From positions 1-64,000 of the forward strand of contig KZ538395.1 in NCBI GenBank assembly GCA_000934665.2: a stretch of 64,000 bases of DNA, read 5' to 3'. Below the pieces are notes generated by a model. The model had not been told where the DNA came from. It saw only the letters and a list, made by a program, of their open reading frames with translations, and did no database searches. A program made the translations under genes and the position numbers. The DNA is from Catajapyx aquilonaris. Its lineage: Eukaryota. Shown here piece by piece: positions 3,001 to 42,800 of the stretch; the first letter of the stretch is position 1; each line of letters starts with the position of its first letter.

Positions 3001-5381
3001 TAGTTTTCTGGGAGTGATCCAGTGAATCACCTTTCCCTTCCTTCCCTCCAGACAATTTAGCCGGCAAAGTTTAGGTAGGCAAATGGCTGTTGCGGAAGGG
3101 GGGTAGGTAGGTTGGTCTGGAGAAAATGAAGAAAAAGTGGAAGCCATTAGGGCCCGAAACGCTAAAAGCATAACAAAGCAATAAGAGTATATCGATAGTC
3201 TCCGGACACATTTAACTCAGACTTAGTACCCTCGCCACCTTGATCCAAGTTTAAAGGGAAGGGGGTGGTTGGGGTGGGGGTGGAAGCCAGCATCCATTAT
3301 CTAGGAGAAATTTAATTATTGGCGGAGGTTGCAGCAACGCTTGCTCGCAAGGTTTTAGGGGGGAGAAGATAAGGTGTGCGGGAGAGATCCCAGGATGTCG
3401 CTCTTGTTGCATGGTTATTAAATGGGGCTCGGATCACATTGTACAAGCTTCTGCACTGGTGTATAGCATCCTTCAGCTGCGTCTAACAAGGATCCGCACT
3501 CGCGCACCTGACAAAATTTCACTTGGTAGCAATAAAGTTGGGTTAGATGTGCGGGGCTACGACCCGAGTTTAAGGTTGGAGGGGGTACGACGGCGACTTA
3601 CGACATAACCACTTATAAGTTAGTGGGAGGGCTTTTCAGGCTTGACAAATTTAAGATCAGTTTTGCTCAAGAAGTGCCTCAGCAAAGTTTAGGCTTGGTG
3701 GCAATATCCTGTGAATATTAACCTGGAAATAATTACGTGAAGTAGTGACAACAATTAGAACCGCCAACTGTTTTTTTAAATGTTACACTATAGTGTAATA
3801 TATTTTTAGACCATTGCAGTGTATGGAAATAGCAACATATATTGCCTTAATTACGTAATGTGACCAACAGACGTGTCACTCAGTTTTCTCGTGGTACTTG
3901 ACGCAGGTTATGTGCACAGAAAGGCTAAGAACTAAGCGTATAGTTTTATACAATAAGCTGTAACTGACGAGTTAGACCGTTCATCCGTGTAATGAATGTT
4001 GTTGCGAATTAATTGCTGCCAAAGGTTATAATGCAAAGGCAAAAGAGTGGATAAATGTATCATGAAGTTTATGTTTTCACACGTACTGATCATGTAAACT
4101 GCCACCGGTGCCCAAACTCGGGTTATAGTGAATATTATAGTGTGGGGTTGAAGCATTGGAAAAACTCTCGTAATCGATTTACTGATTCCGATACTTTGGC
4201 TAAATAACACATGCAGGCCAGTCTATTATATCACTGCATGGCTGCAGGTCCCATTTTTTGCGCCATCCTGATAGCTTCAAAAGGAAAGCAGTCCAACACT
4301 GCCAACAGCTACCAGGCTATACAGTAACCTTGCGTTATTACATACAGTCCAAACCACAGCGACGATTTTAAAAAAAAAAAAATCCACTGAAACAACTGCA
4401 TTACGGGGTAAAACGTTTGAAAACTGATAATGTTCAACGGTTATCAGTACCGGATTTCCTCCCCGTACAAGTTTGCTTTCTACTGTAAAGTAGTGGAATA
4501 TTGGTCATCGAGAAGACACGAAATGAATATATTAGTTTCATGAACAAACGTTAAACTGTACTTGATCTTTCATCATGATGTCAGTTGTGATATCGTTGAT
4601 GGATTCAGGTGAACATCCCAGTGCTAGAACGAGATGATGCTGTGCAGGTCATGTACTGCCAAAGTTCAAGAGGATGGTTGGTGGAGGAAGTTTGTTGATT
4701 CTAGCAAACAGTTAGTTGTGATTGTTGCTTCCCTTTAAAGTGAATGCTAAAGTAATCAGTAACCTATACCTATACCTCTTGTACTGGGCAGAACACCACA
4801 ATGTATGTGATAAATATTAGTGACGTAATGACTATCAGTAAAATCCATCGCATTTTTGGGTAGTTTTACATTCCAACTCTAACCGCACTATTGAAAATTA
4901 TCATAAAAGTATTTTATAATTACTGCGGGAGGAACGAAAAAAAGCTTATTAAACCGCCCAATTTGGGCAACTTTTCCCTGAAAGCTTCCATCATGCATAG
5001 TTTTCATTCGCACAATAGTCGAAGGTTAATTACATTAGGATCAATTTGCGCAGTTATTAGCCGTAGCAGAATTGTTCGAATTTTTGCACAAATTTTTCAC
5101 AACCAACATTTTTTGTGTGCGCGCACATTGCACTCAGCATATCCACCCGACACATGAGATGAATCCCATATACATACCCCCCCGTTGAGTGATACGTTAA
5201 CATATAACAAGCACAGGGGGTTTCTATTCCCCGCGCAGGGCACATGTTTAAATTATTACCCAATTGATCAGCATATGGTACGTAAATAATGGAGGTTATT
5301 TTATATTGTAACACGAGTTGCTGGGAATCATTATCATATTGGATTGTGAATTGTTAGTTGGCAAATGAGTGGGATCGGCTT

Positions 5382-12300: not shown

Positions 12301-15300
12301 CTGATGGAGCCAGGGACTTGGACTAGTTCCTCCCGTGCTCTGTAATTTGTAACAGAGCGTCTCTCTCTGTACCTACCGTTCCCTTTTTTGTGAGTGTGTG
12401 TCAACACACATTCTGCCAACCTCGATTCTTCGATGGATACAGTACAATCCGCCAGGGATTGCTGATTAACGTGGTTTTGGCGAATATCTGCACAAAAGAG
12501 ACAGAATTAAAAGGAAAATTAATCAGCGGTGTAGATGCCAACTAATAATTCATAACGCAGGCTTGGGAAAGTTTCAATAGGCCAACAGCGCCCTGATGAA
12601 GTTAGCTCTTGCTTTATTCATCCGGATCTGGATACTATAGTTTCCGGAGCGCAGAAGAGAGAGAGAGAGGGGGGGGGGGGGNTGAAATGGGGTTATATGC
12701 ATTTCCTAGGGCGGATATATTTTCTTCAGCCAAGGGATACACCCCTCTCAGATGCGGAGGGGGCAGAGCTGAGCTGAGCTAATTGGACCTGCGATTAGCT
12801 GTATTGTTTTCGTTTTTTGAAGGCTGGCTGCCTCGGGGATGAACCTGTCTCTCTGCTTCTCTTTTTTTTATATATATTTTTCCTCTCTTTTTTTTCTCTC
12901 TGAAGCTTCCATCCTCTTGGAATGGCTTGGTAATTCCGGATGGAGGATGAGATAGGATAGCTGCGCCTACCTTCTTTCTTAGTCCGACATCAATCATAGC
13001 ACTTGGCTTTATCCTCCCCACCCTCATCCTACTACATACCTCGGGTACCTCAATTCATCACGGAGGGATGACGTCAGTGGGTTGGAAATTTGGTTATGTA
13101 TTGGGAGTTTGCACACCTCTGGCAATGTCCATGTATAATGCAAGTGAGGGGGGTATAGGGGTGGGGGAAGCCGTGGACTTTGCAGCTGCCTGAATCGTAT
13201 CGTATGCAAAGTTGAAGGCGGTTTTCATGTGTTGAGTTTTCACTCGGAGGCAGGTAGGCGCGGGCGGCCTTATTTATTCTTCTCCTAGGAATACGTTTCG
13301 CCGCATCCGACCTCCCGAGAAGTTGAATGTTACATCAGTTTAGTAACTCAGACGTTTGGATCATGTTTGCACCGAATTTCCGGGGGTAATGTGATGGAGT
13401 TTGGTCCGCATTAACTTCAACGGGGGATCTCCCTCTCTCCCATTGAATAGTGAGTGATATATGGATAGGATGGGAGGGGGGGAAGGTATAGAGAGGCAAC
13501 ATGGGAAACCGACATGACCCTGTTTCTGCGGGTGGATAAAAAGTTGACAAAAAGTTAAACATGCAAATATGTGGGAGGGCATTGAATATACCACAGGCTA
13601 GGCTACAGCCTGATCGAAATTTCAGATTGGATTCAGCTCATTTGGCTACCGATTAGTTGGGAATTTACCACATTTACAATTGGATATGGGCCATCCCTCC
13701 ATTCTATATGTAGTGCGATGGGCACAATGCGCAATCACTCAATCTCTAAAACTCTGTTCCGGGGGACCCAACGAGCTTAGCGAAAATTTCCTGACGGCTT
13801 CAGGCAGCGAAAGGGAATTATTTTCCGTTTTTGTGGAGTTGAATGTTGTGGCAGAGCGGTCCCCACCTCCAGGCTGGAATTGTCCCTGCCAATTATGATC
13901 AGCCGCGTAAACATGTTATTAGACGGAAACCTAATTTTTTTTTTCTATCTTTCCCCCAATGCCGTCTTTCTGTATGGCAATTTCCATGGTTGGAAAATCC
14001 TTTCCCCGTCTCCTGTGCCAAAAATACCTTGTCAGAATGTCCTGTCCTCTCACACATTTTTTTTAAAAAAACCTCCTCGTGCTGCTATTTCCCGGAGGAG
14101 GTAGGAGGGTGTGTGTGTGTGCCTGGCTGTGCAGCAGCTTGCTGCGAATTGGATTGAGCCTTCCTTCGTTATCGAACCTTCCGGTTTGGCCCCTGTCAGC
14201 CCCCCCATCCTCTTTTGTTAATCCTCTGCAAACGCTTTTTCTGGCCGGACAAATCTTGTCAGCACCAACGGGCGGAAAAGGCGACACTTGGTTTTTTTCA
14301 ATAAAAATGAAGCAACTATCTCGGCGGTATGGCCTGTCTACTTGGCTCGTGCCATTGAATTTAAAAGGGAGGGATGACTGGGGGGGGGGGGNGGGGGGGG
14401 ACTATATGGTATATAGTTGGTGGAAAGCGGGGGAGATTGAGGGAGAAATGTGCGGGGCAAGGGGGGAGGGGGACTGGCGAAATGAAAGGAGAATTGGGAT
14501 GGAAATGGAATGGAATATTAAATTGACAACGGGCTGCGCTGTGAAACGATAACTTGCGTCCACCTCCGTCAAACTTCACGGAAGAACGCATTATCGGCAC
14601 TTTCCACTGCGGGAATTCGATTTCGTCGCACTTAAGCACATAATTAGACAAACAGAATGACATGGTGTAGGCTCACCTTTCCGAATGCTAATGGCAAAGT
14701 ACGGGGGTCTGTGTAGCGGGCAAAATAATTTCACAAATGGAAAAGAGTCTGCCTGGCACGACTTGGGTAACGCGAGTTAGTGTATGAGACACTCTGACGA
14801 GGGATTTGCTCAAGTAAAGGCTCCGGCATTACAAAACACTGGGCGTAAATCCCCCCTCTTGAATTTGCAGCCGGGGTGGTAACCTGCAGGAAAAAGGATA
14901 TAGTGTCAGGTATCCTAGCTCTGTTATTTCGCATCTGGAGGTAAATTCCTGCGCACCGTAGTATCGGATGTGGAAGTGTCCTCAGCCTCGTTTCTAAGAT
15001 AATTAGCATCAATCAACTGTCGCGGGTACAGCCTACCACCTTCTATAGCTTATATGCGATCGCAGTTTAAATTCAGACTTAACTGTTATTCGCTGTACAT
15101 TTTAAGCGTGAAGGGACGCATACCTTTCAGGATATGCCTTGTGTTCAAAGCAAGGTCCATTCTGATGCCTATATAACGAGGATATGAAGATCAAGTGACA
15201 CGTAAGCGATCCTTTGGGGCCTCATTATGAAGCACTCCAACTGGCCTATCGATAACATATTGTTGAAATATCCCTGTGGAAGATCAGGTGCTAGGTAAGT

Positions 15301-18300
15301 GTATGTTGGCGACGGAAATAGCCCATTTTGAAAGCGACGAGGACAGATACTGGCGTGAGAACCACCTTGAGTGTGGGAGGGCTGTCTATTTTTTTTCTTC
15401 CGGGATACAATGAATGTCTCTTATATGTGATGACAAAAATATCGCACAATAGCTTATCTTGGGATAGTGCGTGGTATACGGTCACGTATTTCATAGTCTA
15501 ACAATAGGCTGTGGTCCGAACCGATTAATAATGATGCTTATTTTTATACCGGACACGTATTGATAGAGTTGTTATTTGTTGTGGTGCACTGCCCTTAAGT
15601 AAACCTGGAAGAACCCCGGAATAGAAGAATGGAACCTTATTGTTGCTTCCAAACTGGTTGCTCGGGTAAACAGTGCAGAACCTTTTCTCCATTCTCATCT
15701 AGAACTGTGGACTTTGGCAGAGACCACCTTGCAGAGTAGATACCATGTATAATTAAGTTTAAAGTGCATGCACTGCAGCAAACGCTCGTATACTTAAAAT
15801 ATTAGGAAGTTGTCCATGATATTACAGTACCGGTAGTCAATATTTATGCTTTTGCAGCTACCCTCAGCTCTCAGGGTATCGAGTTTGGAATATCAAATTT
15901 TCAGTTTAACGTTCACGAAAGTGAAGAACATAGGGTGCTGCATGATTTTATGATCTCCCAACAACGGGTAACCAGGGGCATCGCAAGGAGGGGAGATTCT
16001 ATTTATACAGATGCGCTCCAGTTCCCATAATAGTGCGCATACATTATCTTATGGAATAATAACAGTTTCCTCTGCATACACAGTATACAACAACATTAAA
16101 TGGTAATATTTTGGAGCTGTACAGCGAACAACCTGCACGGTGCAAAAATGGACCCAACTTGGTTTAGAGGCAGAAATTTTTATTGCCAACCTGTTTCATC
16201 CGTTATTGCGGTGATGCTGCTATTTGAATTTGATATTTTTTTAAAAAAATCGCATTTAATGCTTATTATTTGGTCTAGTTCAATGTGACCAGGATTTTTG
16301 GGGGGAGGAGACTCTTCAATCACTTGCCATATTCTGGGTTCCTCCAACCTTATTGGGCAGTACATATAACGCGGACAGGAGTTGACTTGGCAGTCAATTA
16401 GCTTCTGCAGCTACATCATCCAAGCTGCGTCCAGGTAGAATCAAGAGACTCTTCCCTATATATAAACCCCTTCCCCCTACCCTATCCCTGGGTATCACCC
16501 AGGCACTTTACGGCTTAGAGATCGATCCGGCATTTTCAGACAAGAGAAGGCCCGGAGACGGATTTTGGAGGGGGACCTTCTGCTGCTGCTGCTGCTCTCT
16601 GATCCCAATTCCTACATAAGTCCTATAGAGAGTGGTCAGCGTGTGACTCGGGGGGCCGGAGAAAATGTCCGGAGGTTTCTGATGAACAGGTCGTTGTAGC
16701 ACCGGTGACAAGCTAATTACGGTCCATTTTTGGGGAGATTGTGTGGACCTCCGGGTTGGGTCTCGAGAGACTGACGACGACAGATTGAGCCGGGAGAGAA
16801 AAGGTCGGCGCCCCCTTCTCTCTCGGCTGGTTCCTTAAAGGTTGGGTGACTTTGCTGCTGGGGTGTGTGGGGAGAGGGGGAGGGTACAAGAAGGGAAATT
16901 GAATTTTATTTCTAATTTTGACGCCGAGGCCAAGTTATTACTGAGGGGTGCGCTCGGATGCTGAGCGAGCTGTCGGAGAGGAAACAGAGCTTGGGGATAG
17001 AAAAACTTGTGTGTCTCGGGCTGCTTCCTGTCGCGGGAAGAAAGGGTTCTTGCTTTCTCCGAAAGGCAGTCATTCACACACGAGATTGCTGATTCGTTTA
17101 TGTCCTGGGCAAGGACACACCTGATTATTGCCTAGGTGCCCTCCGGTAATGAAATCACTCGACTCGACGCCTCTCCTTTTTTTTCCTCAGACACCTTTGT
17201 TCAATTTGATACGCAACACTGCCTTTCTTAGGTGCGTGTTTGTCAGGTTTGTGCGCAGAAAAATTGCTTGTATATTCGGTGTCAGAGTCATAAAAGCTCA
17301 CTTACCAAACACACATAGTGCTGTTTCTTAGGTGTTGCAAATCCCTGACCAAGCGTTGATAAGAGCATTATCCCGAGAACAATAAGACGCATTAAGCAAC
17401 GTCATACAATATGCTGCGCGGTTATGTAAGGTGATGATAATGCCCTGTGCCAGTGTTCTAGACGAGCTGCCTCTGCTATCACTGTCTCAGGAATTGCAAG
17501 TGATTACCGCCATGCTCTCTCTTGAAGACGTTACTAATGTATGGCGTTTTGTCACGAGCTGGTCTAATTTGCGAGATGACTTGGTGCATTATACCTGGAA
17601 GTCATCAAGTTCATAATTCGTAGGTGTTTGCTCGGTACGTTTTGAATTGGTAATTAAATTCTGGGACCTTATTTATCGTACGTGAAGCCATCACGGCCAG
17701 TACAGACACACTATTAAATTTTTTTAACGAGTACCTGAAGTTTGCTAATGTACAAAATGTACAGTTATTTTGCCTGTCGAAAGCGAAGTGCGGTGGAAAA
17801 TTAGTTTGAAAATATATACATTCATTACATCTGATAATTAGGTATGGCGCATTACGATTCGCAGTTTAATAATGCCAATGAAACAATATTGTTGGCTTTA
17901 TTTTGGTATAAAATTATCAACACGTGATAATTGGAATATTTTGATGCAGTAACGAAGAGCATATTGGTTATAATATTTCATGCGGGTATATTGCTGTTCA
18001 AAATCCGTCATAATATCGCTGTGTAAATTTTGATAATCAACAATGGCTCACCCTGCACACCAAGTAAAAATAGTGCCACTGATCATTAATTACATTCGCA
18101 TGCAGGTTTCTGTAAATGAGAAGCTAATCACATTTATACCATTTGGACTTAATTATAGGGGGTCGAGATTATTATGGCCACATGGTATTTGTTAAAAATA
18201 AATTGGATAAAGTTTGTCGTTAGCTCGTATGATTTTTTTTCACCTGACCTTGGTTTTTCGTTATAATTATAATGTGCCAACCTTTATGAAATTTATCCTC

Positions 18301-19314: not shown

Positions 19315-19352
19315 GTTGACCTTATTGTTCTTCTTCTTTTCCGCAGGTAAGA
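19315..19352 (+). other. Candidate recursive splice site (ratchet point) 1, AG|GT at 19346/19347
   Basis: GTTGAC branch-like motif (A at 19319), then CTTATTGTTCTTCTTCTTTTCCGCAG|GTAAGA. No other AG for about 50 nt upstream. Downstream donor GAC|GTATGT at 19391. Confidence 0.7.
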
Positions 19353-29800: not shown

Positions 29801-31336
29801 GTGGTCTTAGTGTGGGTTTTAGGCAACTAGAAAATGCAAAGGTCCATTAGTTTTACATCGTCTCAAAGATAACTACGTATAATGAATGCATTGTTTCACC
29901 ACATCATGGGCGGATGTATCCAGCTTTTAGCAGCAGAGTGAAATGCAAAGTAGGTGCCAAGTCAATGTTAGGTTACTTATTCATCTTAGGAAACTGCTGG
30001 GTGTGGTCATCTTGTATATTAATACTGATGGTGGCCATTCTTTTGTTTCCAAAATTAATTATAAGGATTAAATTTGACATATAACTAGCAGGCGTTGCCT
30101 CCTGCTGTGGCCGATTTTATTATAATGCACATTTCGCTAGGTGCATTGTTTACAGAATATCACAAATGCGAAAATCCGCATCATGGCCGACGTAACATGA
30201 ATCACGTGATAAATATACCTCGCACCACATTTCAATGGGATACTCCAGTTGGTTGAGAATAATTCGTAATTCTGCCTGATCCCGGAGATGATTAGCACAC
30301 CTGAGAGCAAATCTGGACAGGAAACATTTCCTGTTATGCATGGCGTAATGCAAGTCGTGCTTCGAGGAAGTTCATTGAAGTCTGTGGGGCCCACGGCCGG
30401 AATCGGAGGTGAGCCAGATGGGAAGGATATCGGTCTGAGAACATGTGGGAAAGGAGGATGTGGATTAATGAACTGCCTCGCATTGCGTACGAATAGACTG
30501 CGATGTAACATGTTGGAATAATACTGTATTGCATGAAACACAAGGGACATTCTGGTTGTAATTGAATTACACTGCTCCTTTCACGTATTAATTCTCCTTC
30601 CTCAATTTCCCCCCGACCTTTGACACCCAGCTGACCCCATGAATACGGACCTCAGAAACCCGCGGGCGTTTCTCGTAGTGTCCGAACCGCGCGAAAATCA
30701 CATACTCACATGTCATCGCACAACTCTTGCGAACCGGTTGATCGAGGTCGAGGTCACGGTGAAGCCATAAACCACCACCACCCCTTTGGTAATGAAGGAA
30801 AAAAATATATACCACGCAACGCCCCGCACGCCATACATTCAGTGTTGTCTCCACAGGACATTGCACCTCCCCAGGAACCCACTTCCTGCAACATCATCTT
30901 CCTTTAGAGTCTCTGACTTCTTTTTTTTTCTCTCTCTCTTCCCCTCCCCTTTTCTCCTTTCTTGTTGGAGCTTGGTGGTATTGTGGCAGTCTCTGCTTCA
31001 TCAGGTGGCTCTTGGGAGAGCATGTACCGTAGGCCCCCGGTATGGAAGAGGGGCAAACCCCTGGCCTTTCATCTCGGCAACGAGGGAAATTGGAGGGCTT
31101 CCTTGTGCCAAGCAAATCTGCCAGGGAAGTTGCTTCATCTTGTGCAGCCTCCCTATTATTCTCATATCAGAGCCCCGCACACTCCGGGCCCTTCATTCAA
31201 GACGACTGCCGACTATATGTATTTTATGGCCTTAAAAAAGAAGAGGAGCTAACTCTTTCAAAAATTGGCATAAGGTCTTGTACAGTTCATATTCGTCAAT
31301 TTCGACTACTTGAAGTGACTTGTACTTTATTTAAAA

Positions 31337-39200: not shown

Positions 39201-39507
39201 TCTCCTCCCCTTTCGCAACGTGCTTTTGTTTCACGGAAATGAATGCGTCAAGTCAGCAGAACGGTTGGTACAGTTTCCTTGGACATGTGACATTTCCGGT
39301 ACATATTCAATAAACCATGCCGCCATTGCCAATTTTGGGTACATGTATGAGCAGCTGCTTCTAACACCAAATTGAGCATCCCAGGTGTGTCTGAGACTAA
39401 CTCTAACCAAGTGTATTTTTTTTTAAGCGTTCCCCCTTCCCCCATCTCTTTTTTTGTGATGAGAAGGGGGAAGTGACCCTTGACACATCTGCCCTGGTAT
39501 ACCACTC

Positions 39508-39546
39508 TCTGATTTGTGCCCTCCTCCTCTTTTTTTGCAGGTAAGC
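39508..39546 (+). other. Candidate recursive splice site (ratchet point) 2, AG|GT at 39540/39541
   Basis: CTGAT branch-like motif (A at 39512), then TTGTGCCCTCCTCCTCTTTTTTTGCAG|GTAAGC. AG-free for about 65 nt upstream. Downstream donors GTGAGA (39589) and GTGAGT (39632). Confidence 0.72.
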
Positions 39547-39597
39547 GGCTTCTTACCGGCTCTAAAAAAAAACATTGAAAAAAAAAAAGTGAGACTA

Positions 39598-39680
39598 GCG
39601 AGCGAGAGAGCGAGAGAGAGAGTGTGTGTTTGTGAGTTTTTGGGTTAGTTATCCGGAGTCGGTGTTGGGCTTCACAGACG
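39598..39680 (+). promoter_or_regulatory. Possible internal promoter: GAGA-rich tract plus Inr-like TTAGTT
   Basis: GCGAGCGAGAGAGCGAGAGAGAGAG at 39598-39622, TTAGTT at 39645-39650, and DPE-like AGACG at 39676 (2 nt off the canonical +28 spacing). Lies about 190 nt upstream of the candidate ATG. Confidence 0.35.
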
Positions 39681-39836
39681 CACAAATCCTATCCGCGTTA
39701 GGCTCAGAGTGAGACTTGTGGAATAGGCATTGAGTGAAAGGAAGTGGTTTTGACACACACAAAAGCGAAAAAAAGAATCCTCGCAAACGCTCACATATAC
39801 AAAAACCCACCTCCAATAAGAGGGGAGAGATAGACT

Positions 39837-39899
39837 ATGAAGAGACCGGCGTCGGATGTCCAGTACTTCGCCTTCATGCCGTACCTGGCGGATCCTCAG
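39837..39899 (+). CDS. Candidate initial coding exon, MKRPASDVQYFAFMPYLADPQ (21 codons, phase-0 donor); product unknown
   Basis: First ATG after a 296-nt ATG-free leader, with an in-frame TAG 6 nt upstream. 17 of 21 codons end in G/C against an A-rich flank. Ends at a good donor, CAG|GTAGGT (39900). Confidence 0.6.
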
Positions 39900-42800
39900 G
39901 TAGGTTCAAAAACCAATGCATGGTGGTGGGATTTACGTATCAGATGGTTTACCACAAGCCTGGCCGTCGTGTCGTCTGATGTCAGGCGGAAATTAAATTA
40001 TATGCGGTGCTTATTGCCTGTACTGAGAGACATGGGGAAAAGCAGTGTTCTCATTTTCAATATGATGGGAGGGTAAAATTCGGCGAGGATTGTGTCAATA
40101 AAATATAACGAAGGGAATTGATGAGGCGGACCGACTGACAACACTGGCATGGCATCGCCCCAATGCATCTATAATGCAGTTTCCACTACATTTTGCATGA
40201 GTTAACAGCATAAGGATAATAAACAGATAGCAGCTCATTAAAATAGCTTTCTAGAAAATATGTAATTTGCGTGGGGGGGGGATATCAACTAACCGAGTGC
40301 GGCATCGGGATTTAATTAGTGCCGACCATAATAAGTGGCGGTGGATGCTGGAGTTTTGCCCGCGCGCCCCCTCCCGTATGGCCAAGGGGTTTTCTGAACA
40401 GCTTTTTGCGCCTATCGCATGGCCGAATTCATCTCAGCTTCACATCGCCCACTTTTGTTGCTACCCTTATGGAAACCGAACAGCAGAAATGAAAGCTCTT
40501 TTGTTTCGCAGCAGTGGTCATGAGGGTTTTTGGATGCCGGTTCAATAGGCCAAATCAGCCGGATGAGCGAACAGGAAGGGCTTCTTTTCCCTACGTATTC
40601 ACCGGATTTTTTTTTTTTTTTCTGTGTGGCATGTGTATTGGATCTCTCCATGTTGTGTTTGGAGGAGGATAAGAGATGACCAGAGGCTTCCTTTTTTGGA
40701 AGCCAAACCCACCGTGTGAGAGAGCGTAATTGCACGAAATGTCTGGCTAAAAAAAAATAATCGCAATGTAAACCTGTCAGCGGGGGTTTTGCAATTCATA
40801 TAGGCACGGTTCGGCGGGAAGTCAGAAAAGCCTAAGAGGACATCTGTGCCAAGCTTGGAAACGTATGAGACATGCGTATTCATGCAGTATTCACGAAGCA
40901 CGAGGCTGCAGTTTTCCCTGAAAATCAAGATAGTTCCATATGAGAGAACACCCTGTGTTTTCCTTTTGCGAGGCCTGAGTTGTCTTCGCAAAGAGAGGAT
41001 TACAATCATGGTCTGACGATTCGGAACCGAGTCGGTACTTTTGGAAAATGGGTTACATTTCTATTGTTGGCTTCCCCTGAGCGGTCTCGTTCAGTTTTAG
41101 AGAAGAGGAGGAGGAGAAGGGGATTTTCCCAGTGGTTGTCATTTCAGAAATGGCTAGGCAGGTCCAAGGTAAAAAGCGGATTACCTGCTTCTGTGTCAAC
41201 CACCTCTGCAGCATGCAAGGGGCTTAGGCTGGCAGCGATTCTTGATAGGGAAACGACTCCATTAGATTGATGCAGCGGGGCCCGTCATCATTGAAACCAC
41301 CCGTTTCTACCTCCCCTTCACTCTCTCTCTCAGCGAAACTGCATTTTGGAAACCGAATCTACCGTGCAGAATCCCTATTGGACATCCACCATGGGAGGCT
41401 TCTGTTTCATACAGTGCATTTATCGAAGCGTAGGGTTCAGCCCGGGAAATTGAACCTTGGGCACGGAGCAGTGCGTTTCATGCATTATTTGCAACGCTGC
41501 AATCAAGCTGCTGCTCTCCCACCAAGGTAACAACTATTCATCCACGCCACTAGGAGAGGATGGTGGGTACTGGGTGGGGATGGGAGAGAGAGAAAAAAAG
41601 TGCACAGCGCAGGTAGAATTGCCCTCGTGATGGGCCCTATTCCAGCTCCAAAAATCCATCGCAGTGACCCTTCAGTCTCAGATAATTTTCAATGGAGGGG
41701 CGAAATAACAGAAGCCGGTGGAGCATGGTCAATCTCTCTCTCTAAAAAAAACCGGACCCTGCTACATTCAACCTGAAGTGAATGTACCACCAATTTCGGA
41801 GTTAATCTTATTATCCGTGTTATTTTTGCGTGCAATTTCTTGCACAACCCCCGAGTCTTGACACGTCAGCGTCATTCACTGCATGAATAGATACATTGGT
41901 ACCATCTGGTAGCGATCACTACCATTTCTCCCACTCCTTGAAGGGAATTTTAGAAATATCCGCGATGCCAATAAACTGGACGGAAGGATTGAGCTTGTTT
42001 AGTATAGAATGGCACGGCTCAGGAGAGAGCATTCATCTGCGTCCCAAGTGGGTCCGATTCGTGTGGTTTACCTTTGGCTTGAGAGGCCGCGAGTATAATC
42101 GTGGCAAGATGCCCGCCATTGTATGCCCCCAGACTGTTTATGATAAGGCTCGAAAGCTACGTAAGCTGACTAGGCGGCGGATCTGACTGCATCTCACTCG
42201 CTGGGCTAGTTGGAGTAAGCTTGGCTTGGGTTGTTATTCGTTGTTGGAGGGGGATGGGAGGGAAGGGGAGGGGAGACTCCCCGATATCTGCATGTATAGG
42301 AAAAAGGAGTCATGTCCCACGAGCTCAGCTTGTGGTTCTTTGTTCACTCCGCAGAGGCGATAAGACCATCTGCGTAATTACTCGCTGGGAAAATACCCTC
42401 GTGCAATGGTATGTAATCACTTTTCAACCTCGTTAGTCGCCATCTCTGCATGGAACCCTGCTCGTATGTAGCTAAATAGAGGTAACCTTCATAATCAGGC
42501 CGTGTAATTATCTGGGCCCGAATTTTTTGTAATGCGAATCTCGTGTGGTGTACAGTAGCACTCTGTATGTTTGGTTTTTTTGGGGAGCTACTTTTTTTTT
42601 ATCGCGTTGGGTTTACACGCCATAACGCTGGTGACGTTCGTTTAGTTCAAAATGCTGTCATTATTCTGGTGTTGACTTTAGCGACGAATATCAACAACTA
42701 TGCAAAGAACGCTGGTTTGGGAATGAAATTATTGTGAGCCAAACTGACTCGGTGTGAAAACAACTTTACAGTACAGCCCATCTAGGGACTTATGTCGCCT

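Follow-up and report, generated by a model that had tools for sequence, protein, structure and literature searches.

A candidate ratchet point and its surroundings

The stretch of DNA analysed here, referred to below as the window, comprises the 64,000 nucleotides at positions 1 to 64,000 of the forward strand of contig KZ538395.1 of Catajapyx aquilonaris (NCBI GenBank assembly GCA_000934665.2). At 39540/39541 it carries a splice acceptor that directly abuts a splice donor, i.e., the arrangement found at the ratchet points of recursive splicing in Drosophila, and over the following 359 nt there is a run of further donors, the last of which directly follows a short open reading frame (ORF) of 21 codons (Table 1). 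A previous reading of the same letters (the original prediction) had joined these elements into a single system, in which the choice of donor at the ratchet point would decide whether a 359-nt exon supplying a new start codon is kept in the transcript. What most likely lies here is a ratchet point with its cryptic recursive-splicing (RS) exon beside a possible alternative start exon, and sites of the ratchet type are already known.

Table 1. Features of the candidate ratchet point, of the sequence next to it and of a second, similar site (positions in the window; a slash within a motif marks the splice junction; U1, pairing energy with the 5' end of U1).
Feature	Positions	Strand	Basis or details
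Candidate branch point CTGAT, A 28 nt 5' of the AG	39509..39513	+	Sole YTRAY match from -50 to -10
Polypyrimidine tract, 17 C/T without a break; T at -5 and -6	39520..39536	+	Sequence reading
Candidate ratchet-point core GCAG/GTAAGC, acceptor abutting donor	39537..39546	+	Sequence reading
Hairpin of GGTAAG with CTTACC, stem of 6 bp and loop of 6 nt, which would cover the ratchet donor	39540..39557	+	Predicted fold
Candidate cryptic RS-exon A, 48 nt, donor AAA/GTGAGA at 39589	39541..39588	+	U1 -4.6 kcal/mol
Candidate cryptic RS-exon B, 91 nt, donor TTT/GTGAGT at 39632	39541..39631	+	U1 -5.5 kcal/mol
GA repeat, GAGAGMG five times (39604-39616)	39597..39622	+	Could be GAGA-factor promoter sites or a purine-rich exonic enhancer
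Further donor-like site AGA/GTGAGA (+168)	39709..39714	+	U1 -5.4 kcal/mol
A+C-rich, ATG-free leader immediately 5' of the start codon	39741..39836	+	A+C 67%
21-codon ORF (MKRPASDVQYFAFMPYLADPQ), first ATG to donor, phase 0; candidate alternative N-terminus	39837..39899	+	
Strong donor CAG/GTAGGT (+359)	39900..39905	+	Consensus match at 8 of 9 positions
Hairpin of high predicted stability, 70-110 nt 5' of the ratchet acceptor	39430..39473	+	Arms CTTCCCCCATCTC and GAGAAGGGGGAAG
Second ratchet-like site CCGCAG/GTAAGA, acceptor ending at 19346	19320..19352	+	Pyrimidines 18/20

Sequence hallmarks of the acceptor and donor at 39540/39541

Nineteen of the 20 nucleotides upstream of the 39540 acceptor are pyrimidines, with TT at 39535-39536 (-5/-6), and the acceptor GCAG closes directly after the pyrimidine run, leaving GTAAGC to start at 39541 (+0). 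YTRAY, to which the candidate branch point conforms, is the branch-point consensus. The strength of donors was taken as the energy of pairing with the U1 5' end, whose motif was used for all duplex energies, and was ranked over the 3,900 GT sites of the + strand. Within its genomic context the 39541 donor forms a U1 duplex of -11.0 kcal/mol, placing it in the top 0.23% of these sites, a value computed with the genomic CAG in place of the real upstream exon. The combination of AGGTRAG with at least 15 pyrimidines among the 20 upstream nucleotides is found twice on the + strand of the 64-kb window (19346 and 39540) and not at all on the - strand. In 300 dinucleotide shuffles it averaged 0.18 occurrences, and two or more were reached in 1.7% of the shuffles.

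These properties can be compared with those of the fly sites. The TT at -5/-6 is present in 196 of 197 fly ratchet points (Duff et al., 10.1101/006163) and, together with the prominent pyrimidine tract, is found at 39540. The ratchet core of the Drosophila type is present at 39537-39546, and the motif column of the recursive-site table of D. melanogaster (Pai et al., PMC6110457, supplementary file 5) contains AGGTGAG 65 times, AGGTAAGC 43, TTGCAGGTAAG 38, AGGTAAGT 37, AGGTAAGA 7 and AGGTAAGG 5 times; given the frequency of AGGTAAGC in this table, GCAG/GTAAGC is therefore a typical core. Finally, weaker 5' splice sites are located less than about 100 nt downstream, at +48 and +91. The pair at 39540/39541 has every sequence hallmark of the Drosophila-type intronic ratchet points that we could test, and by these hallmarks would qualify as one of them; we consider it probable that it is a true ratchet point. 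The original prediction had taken the site for a ratchet point, and in this respect it is supported.

The ratchet donor is also part of a predicted RNA hairpin. In a 31-nt context the pairing of GGTAAG (39540-39545) with CTTACC (39552-39557) has an energy of -9.0 kcal/mol and accounts for 93% of the ensemble. The fold is not unusual (z -1.25, with 22 of 200 shuffles folding equally well), and the + strand of the window contains only four copies of CTTACC. We hypothesize that this hairpin would mask the ratchet donor, either delaying U1 until the acceptor has been used or favouring the donors downstream. The hairpin at 39430-39473, with 13-nt arms that are 92% complementary, has a predicted energy of -21.7 kcal/mol (z -3.36), equalled in stability by one of 200 shuffles; it matches no family of Rfam, a database that gave 0 matches across the whole window. 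In addition, two A-runs within the candidate cryptic exon (39564-39572 and 39578-39588) complement the run of U in the pyrimidine tract, and any pairing between them (39530-39589) would be of the weak A-U type.

Downstream donors and cryptic exons

The donors at +0, +48, +91 and +359 had all been located correctly in the original prediction, which left out the GTGAGA at 39709 (+168). The GTGAG sites are of modest strength (-4.6 to -5.5 kcal/mol, only the top 10-18% of the + strand GT sites), and the donor at 39900 reaches -11.8 kcal/mol, within the top 0.13%. The concentration of GTRAG is uncommon: 39541-39720 contains four for an expectation of 0.3, a number attained in only 0.047% of the 180-nt windows (p of about 5e-4). 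Of the two candidate cryptic exons, the 48-nt form is a multiple of three with only one frame open, and the 91-nt form includes two A-runs and the GA repeat. Neither the 91-nt nor the 359-nt form is a multiple of three, in contrast to what would characterize an expressed RS-exon, which is short and preserves the frame or is otherwise compatible with it.

Fly ratchet points have been described as enclosing a cryptic RS-exon of ca. 50 nt whose downstream donor usually falls short of the ratchet donor in strength (Joseph et al. 2021, PMC8605326), and most fly recursive sites are reported to be followed by another 5' splice site at a distance below 100 nt (Blazquez et al. 2018, PMC6224609). In agreement with the published rule, the donors at +48 and +91 pair with U1 more weakly than the ratchet donor does (-4.6 and -5.5 vs. 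-11.0 kcal/mol). Since both fit the anatomy published for cryptic RS-exons, the multi-donor arrangement is already known and is not a new system. Fly ratchet points are known from the literature to have this layout, in which one acceptor is followed by several donors.

The leader, the 21-codon ORF and the 39900 donor

An in-frame TAG is found at 39831, two codons 5' of the 39837 ATG, which has an A at -3. In the ORF, G or C occupies the third codon position (GC3) in 17 of the 21 codons, a proportion reached by 128 of the 52,028 open 21-codon windows (0.25%), and GC3 falls to 30 of 58 in the read-through 3' of the 39900 donor; by itself GC3 is a weak discriminator, as 0.8 is reached in many 20-codon windows. 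The A+C content of the leader compares with a window mean of 47% (standard deviation 6.9) and belongs to the top 0.4% of 96-nt windows. The 296 nt from 39541 to 39836 are free of ATG, as had been noted before, although the ATG-free run is actually longer (378 nt, from 39459 to 39837) and starts 82 nt 5' of the acceptor. This gap is the second longest of 1,197, which have a mean of 53 nt. By reading the sequence, acceptor-like sites were not found in 39650-39836. Several attributes of an alternative first exon coincide here, i.e., an ATG-free leader, a first ATG that opens the ORF and a strong donor, with no acceptor preceding them. Composition and splice-site strength make the ORF and its donor a plausible start exon, with support that is real but modest, and we would put at about even the chances that ORF, leader and 39900 donor form a true one.

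A promoter had also been proposed around 39647, made up of GAGA elements and an initiator (Inr). Its GAGA part is supported by the five GAGAGMG, but the sequence at the position of the Inr is TTAGTT, which does not fit TCAKTY, and neither TATA nor the downstream promoter element (DPE) accompanies it.

Several searches were made for relatives of the encoded peptide. A 40-aa query (the 21 aa plus 19 aa of read-through) provided no candidate among longer or similar-length proteins in two word-index searches, metagenome contigs contained 0 matches to a degenerate DNA pattern encoding 15 of its residues, and fragments of the peptide had 0 occurrences in the full-text literature. The 79-aa ORF, compared with 1.84 billion representatives, gave a single match, P0001, a 308-aa tandem-repeat protein that aligns at ca. 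30% identity to residues 12-66 of the ORF, mostly in the read-through part. Both 39870-40034 and 31048-31254 of the + strand translate to weak matches to P0001 (ca. 30% identity) that are about equally good. These matches are probably due to chance or low complexity, a diverged dispersed repeat being another possibility.

The setting in the window

The composition of the window is asymmetric between strands. Of the 32 two-kb windows, 31 show a positive GC skew and 25 a negative AT skew, and the + strand is G+T-rich, with 105 GTRAG compared to 57 on the - strand. Strand asymmetry of this kind is linked to transcription, and the uniform skew may be read as one long transcription unit on the + strand. 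The observed/expected ratio of CpG is 0.80. In Pfam searches the 220 + strand ORFs of at least 55 aa gave nothing above the curated cut-off (only three sub-threshold matches), and the 147 - strand ORFs of at least 75 aa gave 0 matches. A rough exon search for the next coding exon found 66 candidates of the type acceptor-ORF-donor, including eight whose GC3 was 0.6 or higher, and none of the 66 was convincing. Self-BLAST of 39300-40300 retrieved short simple-sequence matches only. The 21-codon ORF is therefore the sole coding-like piece found in the 64 kb, and the exon to which it would be joined must lie outside the window.

The second ratchet-like site, at 19346, is located 20,194 nt upstream of 39540. 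It has weak donors at +44 and +80 and an ATG directly after GTAAG. As a reference, fly recursive segments have an average length of 17,953 +/- 9,039 bp (Duff et al., 10.1101/006163).

Other splice-like arrangements were observed on the + strand. At 3052-3110 an acceptor with 19 of 20 pyrimidines is followed by 51 nt and the donor GGG/GTAGGT (U1 -11.6 kcal/mol); with stops in two of the three frames, this unit may be a non-coding or cryptic exon. At 15293-15302, TAG/GTAAGTGT is another AG/GTAAGT juxtaposition, with a donor of -12.4 kcal/mol and without an upstream pyrimidine tract. There are eight N blocks in the window; of the six single Ns, five are located within runs of G or C, according to the translations, and the sixth is at 12682.

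Interpretation of the locus

The explanation that we favor, with a probability of roughly 0.55, is that 39540/39541 would be a ratchet point of the Drosophila type within a very long + strand intron, and that the possible start exon would be its neighbour. The motifs and their rarity are observations, and from them we infer every step of splicing and transcription that follows. The acceptor would first be recognised by exon definition with the GTGAG donor at +48 or at +91, which would delimit a short cryptic RS-exon. The upstream exon would then be joined to 39541, and the regenerated GTAAGC donor would be used next, removing the cryptic exon and the following intron segment without leaving a trace. 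The leader, the 21-codon ORF and the 39900 donor would constitute an alternative 5' exon that adjoins the ratchet site and does not belong to it, transcribed from its own start between ca. 39650 and 39830 and joined to an exon beyond the window.

A number of observations weigh against this explanation. A site identical to 39540/39541 is absent from the D. melanogaster recursive-site table mentioned above, the second site at 19346 has CC and not TT at -5/-6, and the long-intron setting is itself something that we infer. Of the donors that follow the ratchet site, the one at 39900 pairs best with U1 and would in this respect be a stronger partner of the acceptor in exon definition than any of the GTGAG sites, which leaves room for the model of the original prediction. 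Regarding the start exon, the codon-biased ORF does run exactly to the donor as predicted, ending at 39899, but the frame remains open past the 39900 donor to 40073, forming an 80-aa stop-to-stop ORF. A looser version of the signature (a leader of at least 200 nt, an ATG-initiated ORF of at least 15 codons and a donor matching at least 8 of 9 positions) arises by chance in 15% of shuffles and occurs once per strand. The homology searches described above did not find a homologue of the 21-aa peptide, a weak negative given the little power of so short a query and the collapse of isoforms in clustered libraries. Lastly, 39400-39950 contains no match to TCAKTY, TATA, DPE, the DNA replication-related element (DRE), the motif ten element (MTE) or the pause button. 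An alternative first exon could be expected to have core promoter motifs such as Inr, TATA, DPE, MTE or DRE, for which the standard patterns were used. These motifs are missing from many fly promoters and, therefore, their absence only weakens the reading in which the exon has a promoter of its own.

One alternative is that nothing here is used and that the motifs have come together by chance in non-coding DNA that is G+T-rich and of low complexity. The G+T-rich + strand makes GTRAG common (105 vs. 57), the ATG-free gap owes part of its length to A-runs, GA repeats and pyrimidine runs, 54% of the 230 AGGT sites are followed at +20 to +100 by a donor that matches in 6 or more of the 9 positions, 15% of shuffles contain the leader-ORF-donor signature, and the peptide was left without a homologue in the protein libraries searched. 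However, chance would have to bring together several independent rarities within 400 nt, i.e., a ratchet motif seen at least twice in only 1.7% of shuffles, a GTRAG cluster found in 0.047% of the 180-nt windows, the second longest of 1,197 ATG gaps, a GC3 in the top 0.25% and a donor in the top 0.13%, and we find this explanation unlikely. A different possibility is that the first exon alone is real: an internal CT-/GA-rich promoter bound by GAGA factor would drive it and it would end at 39899, the AG/GTAAGC being a chance occurrence within the CT-rich flank of the promoter that is never spliced. The five GAGAGMG at 39604-39616 would agree with such a promoter, as would the pyrimidine tract, which is GA-rich on the opposite strand, and the exon-like leader, ORF and donor are all present. 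GAGA is the sole promoter motif, though, and a full ratchet motif with TT at -5/-6 and a branch-point match at -28 would seldom arise by chance (0.18 per window on average in the shuffles), the more so with a second ratchet-like site on the same strand and at typical spacing. We regard this reading as quite unlikely.

The model of the original prediction requires that 39541-39899 be an expressed RS-exon of 359 nt, for which GTAAGC and the 39900 donor would compete after joining at 39541; the exon, when kept, would place the 39837 start codon in the mRNA, and the hairpin of GGUAAG with CUUACC could tip the choice. The acceptor with its abutting donor and the 39900 donor are both top-tier and lie only 359 nt apart (U1 -11.0 and -11.8 kcal/mol), all of the 296 nt from the acceptor to the ATG lack an ATG, no other acceptor precedes the ORF, the ratchet donor is covered by a hairpin of -9 kcal/mol that involves a rare hexamer (four CTTACC on the + strand), and expressed RS-exons have been described in flies, although fewer than 50 (PMC8605326). 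Against this, three GTGAG donors inside the proposed exon would have to go unused, fly RS-exons are described in the same source as short (ca. 50 nt), the hairpin energy is ordinary compared with shuffles (z -1.25; 22/200), and the ATG-free run extends upstream past the acceptor. Besides, 39541-39836 has stops in all three frames and 359 is not a multiple of three; the coupled model therefore needs all upstream exons to be untranslated. The intervening GTGAG donors oppose the 359-nt exon as the main product, an argument tempered by their weak U1 matches and by the very strong 39900 donor. On balance the model appears very unlikely, and the coupling of ratchet point and start exon that was its central claim finds no support in our analysis; we would hold such a coupling to be highly improbable. 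Least probable of all is a more specific version, in which the ratchet point would act as a gate for N-terminal choice, with the hairpin (through a U1-like CUUACC located 6 nt downstream) setting the balance between the regenerated donor, whose use may lead to skipping of the exon, and the 39900 donor, whose use may keep the 359-nt exon and bring in the new start codon.

Known systems and significance

The closest likeness is to the Drosophila ratchet points with cryptic RS-exons, with which the locus shares the juxtaposed acceptor and donor, the long pyrimidine tract, TT at -5/-6, GTAAGC, weaker 5' splice sites less than 100 nt downstream, an apparently non-coding setting of tens of kb and a distance of ca. 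20 kb to the next site. It differs from them in that the candidate is known from sequence alone, in its unusually dense run of donor-like motifs, and in the very strong +359 donor after an ORF with a start codon. Among the expressed recursive exons of flies are the Ubx microexons mI and mII and those of msi, heph, mub, sm and ps (PMC8605326, which describes these cases). As in Ubx mI and mII, the exon considered here would open with a donor, would be kept or removed after joining, and would depend on donor competition. However, the Ubx microexons are coding and 51 nt long, whereas the candidate has 359 nt, internal GTGAG and, ahead of its own ATG, stops in each frame. Beadex (Bx) has a ratchet point and an RS-exon in the 5' untranslated region (UTR) intron of its long isoform, in a gene with other start sites, and so offers an earlier case of a ratchet point within a 5' region that has several promoters; in that source the RS-exon of Bx is not said to supply a start codon (PMC8605326).

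For the idea put forward in the original prediction, that splicing in several steps decides the N-terminal isoform, the closest precedent that we found is the intrasplicing of protein 4.1R (Parra et al. 2008), summarized in a later source as tying the retention of an upstream AUG-bearing exon to first-exon choice (10.1101/159350); its AUG-1 has been located in exon 2' (PMC3166722). Unlike the candidate described here, and as far as these accounts detail it, 4.1R is a mammalian gene in which the splice is nested, in place of a zero-length ratchet point. The RS-exon model of 2015, in the form given by a review, likewise has competition between the regenerated donor and the donor of the RS-exon setting inclusion, but there inclusion mostly leads to premature stops and decay and not to a new N-terminus (PMC5126111). 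We found no description of an expressed fly recursive exon that supplies a start codon, although the supplements of Parra 2008, Joseph 2018, Burnette 2005 and Sibley 2015 might list some.

If 39541 is used, the locus would be a further recursive splice site accompanied by a cryptic exon of the usual kind, as expected for long introns of the fly type. If the 359-nt form were real it would matter more, given how few expressed recursive exons are on record in flies (fewer than 50, as against more than 500 intronic ratchet points, by the counts in PMC8605326). In addition, the proposal that the hairpin masks the donor is concrete enough to be tested by mutation, and a ratchet point located right before an internal start exon would be a natural test case for the interplay of donor competition, RNA structure and promoter choice.

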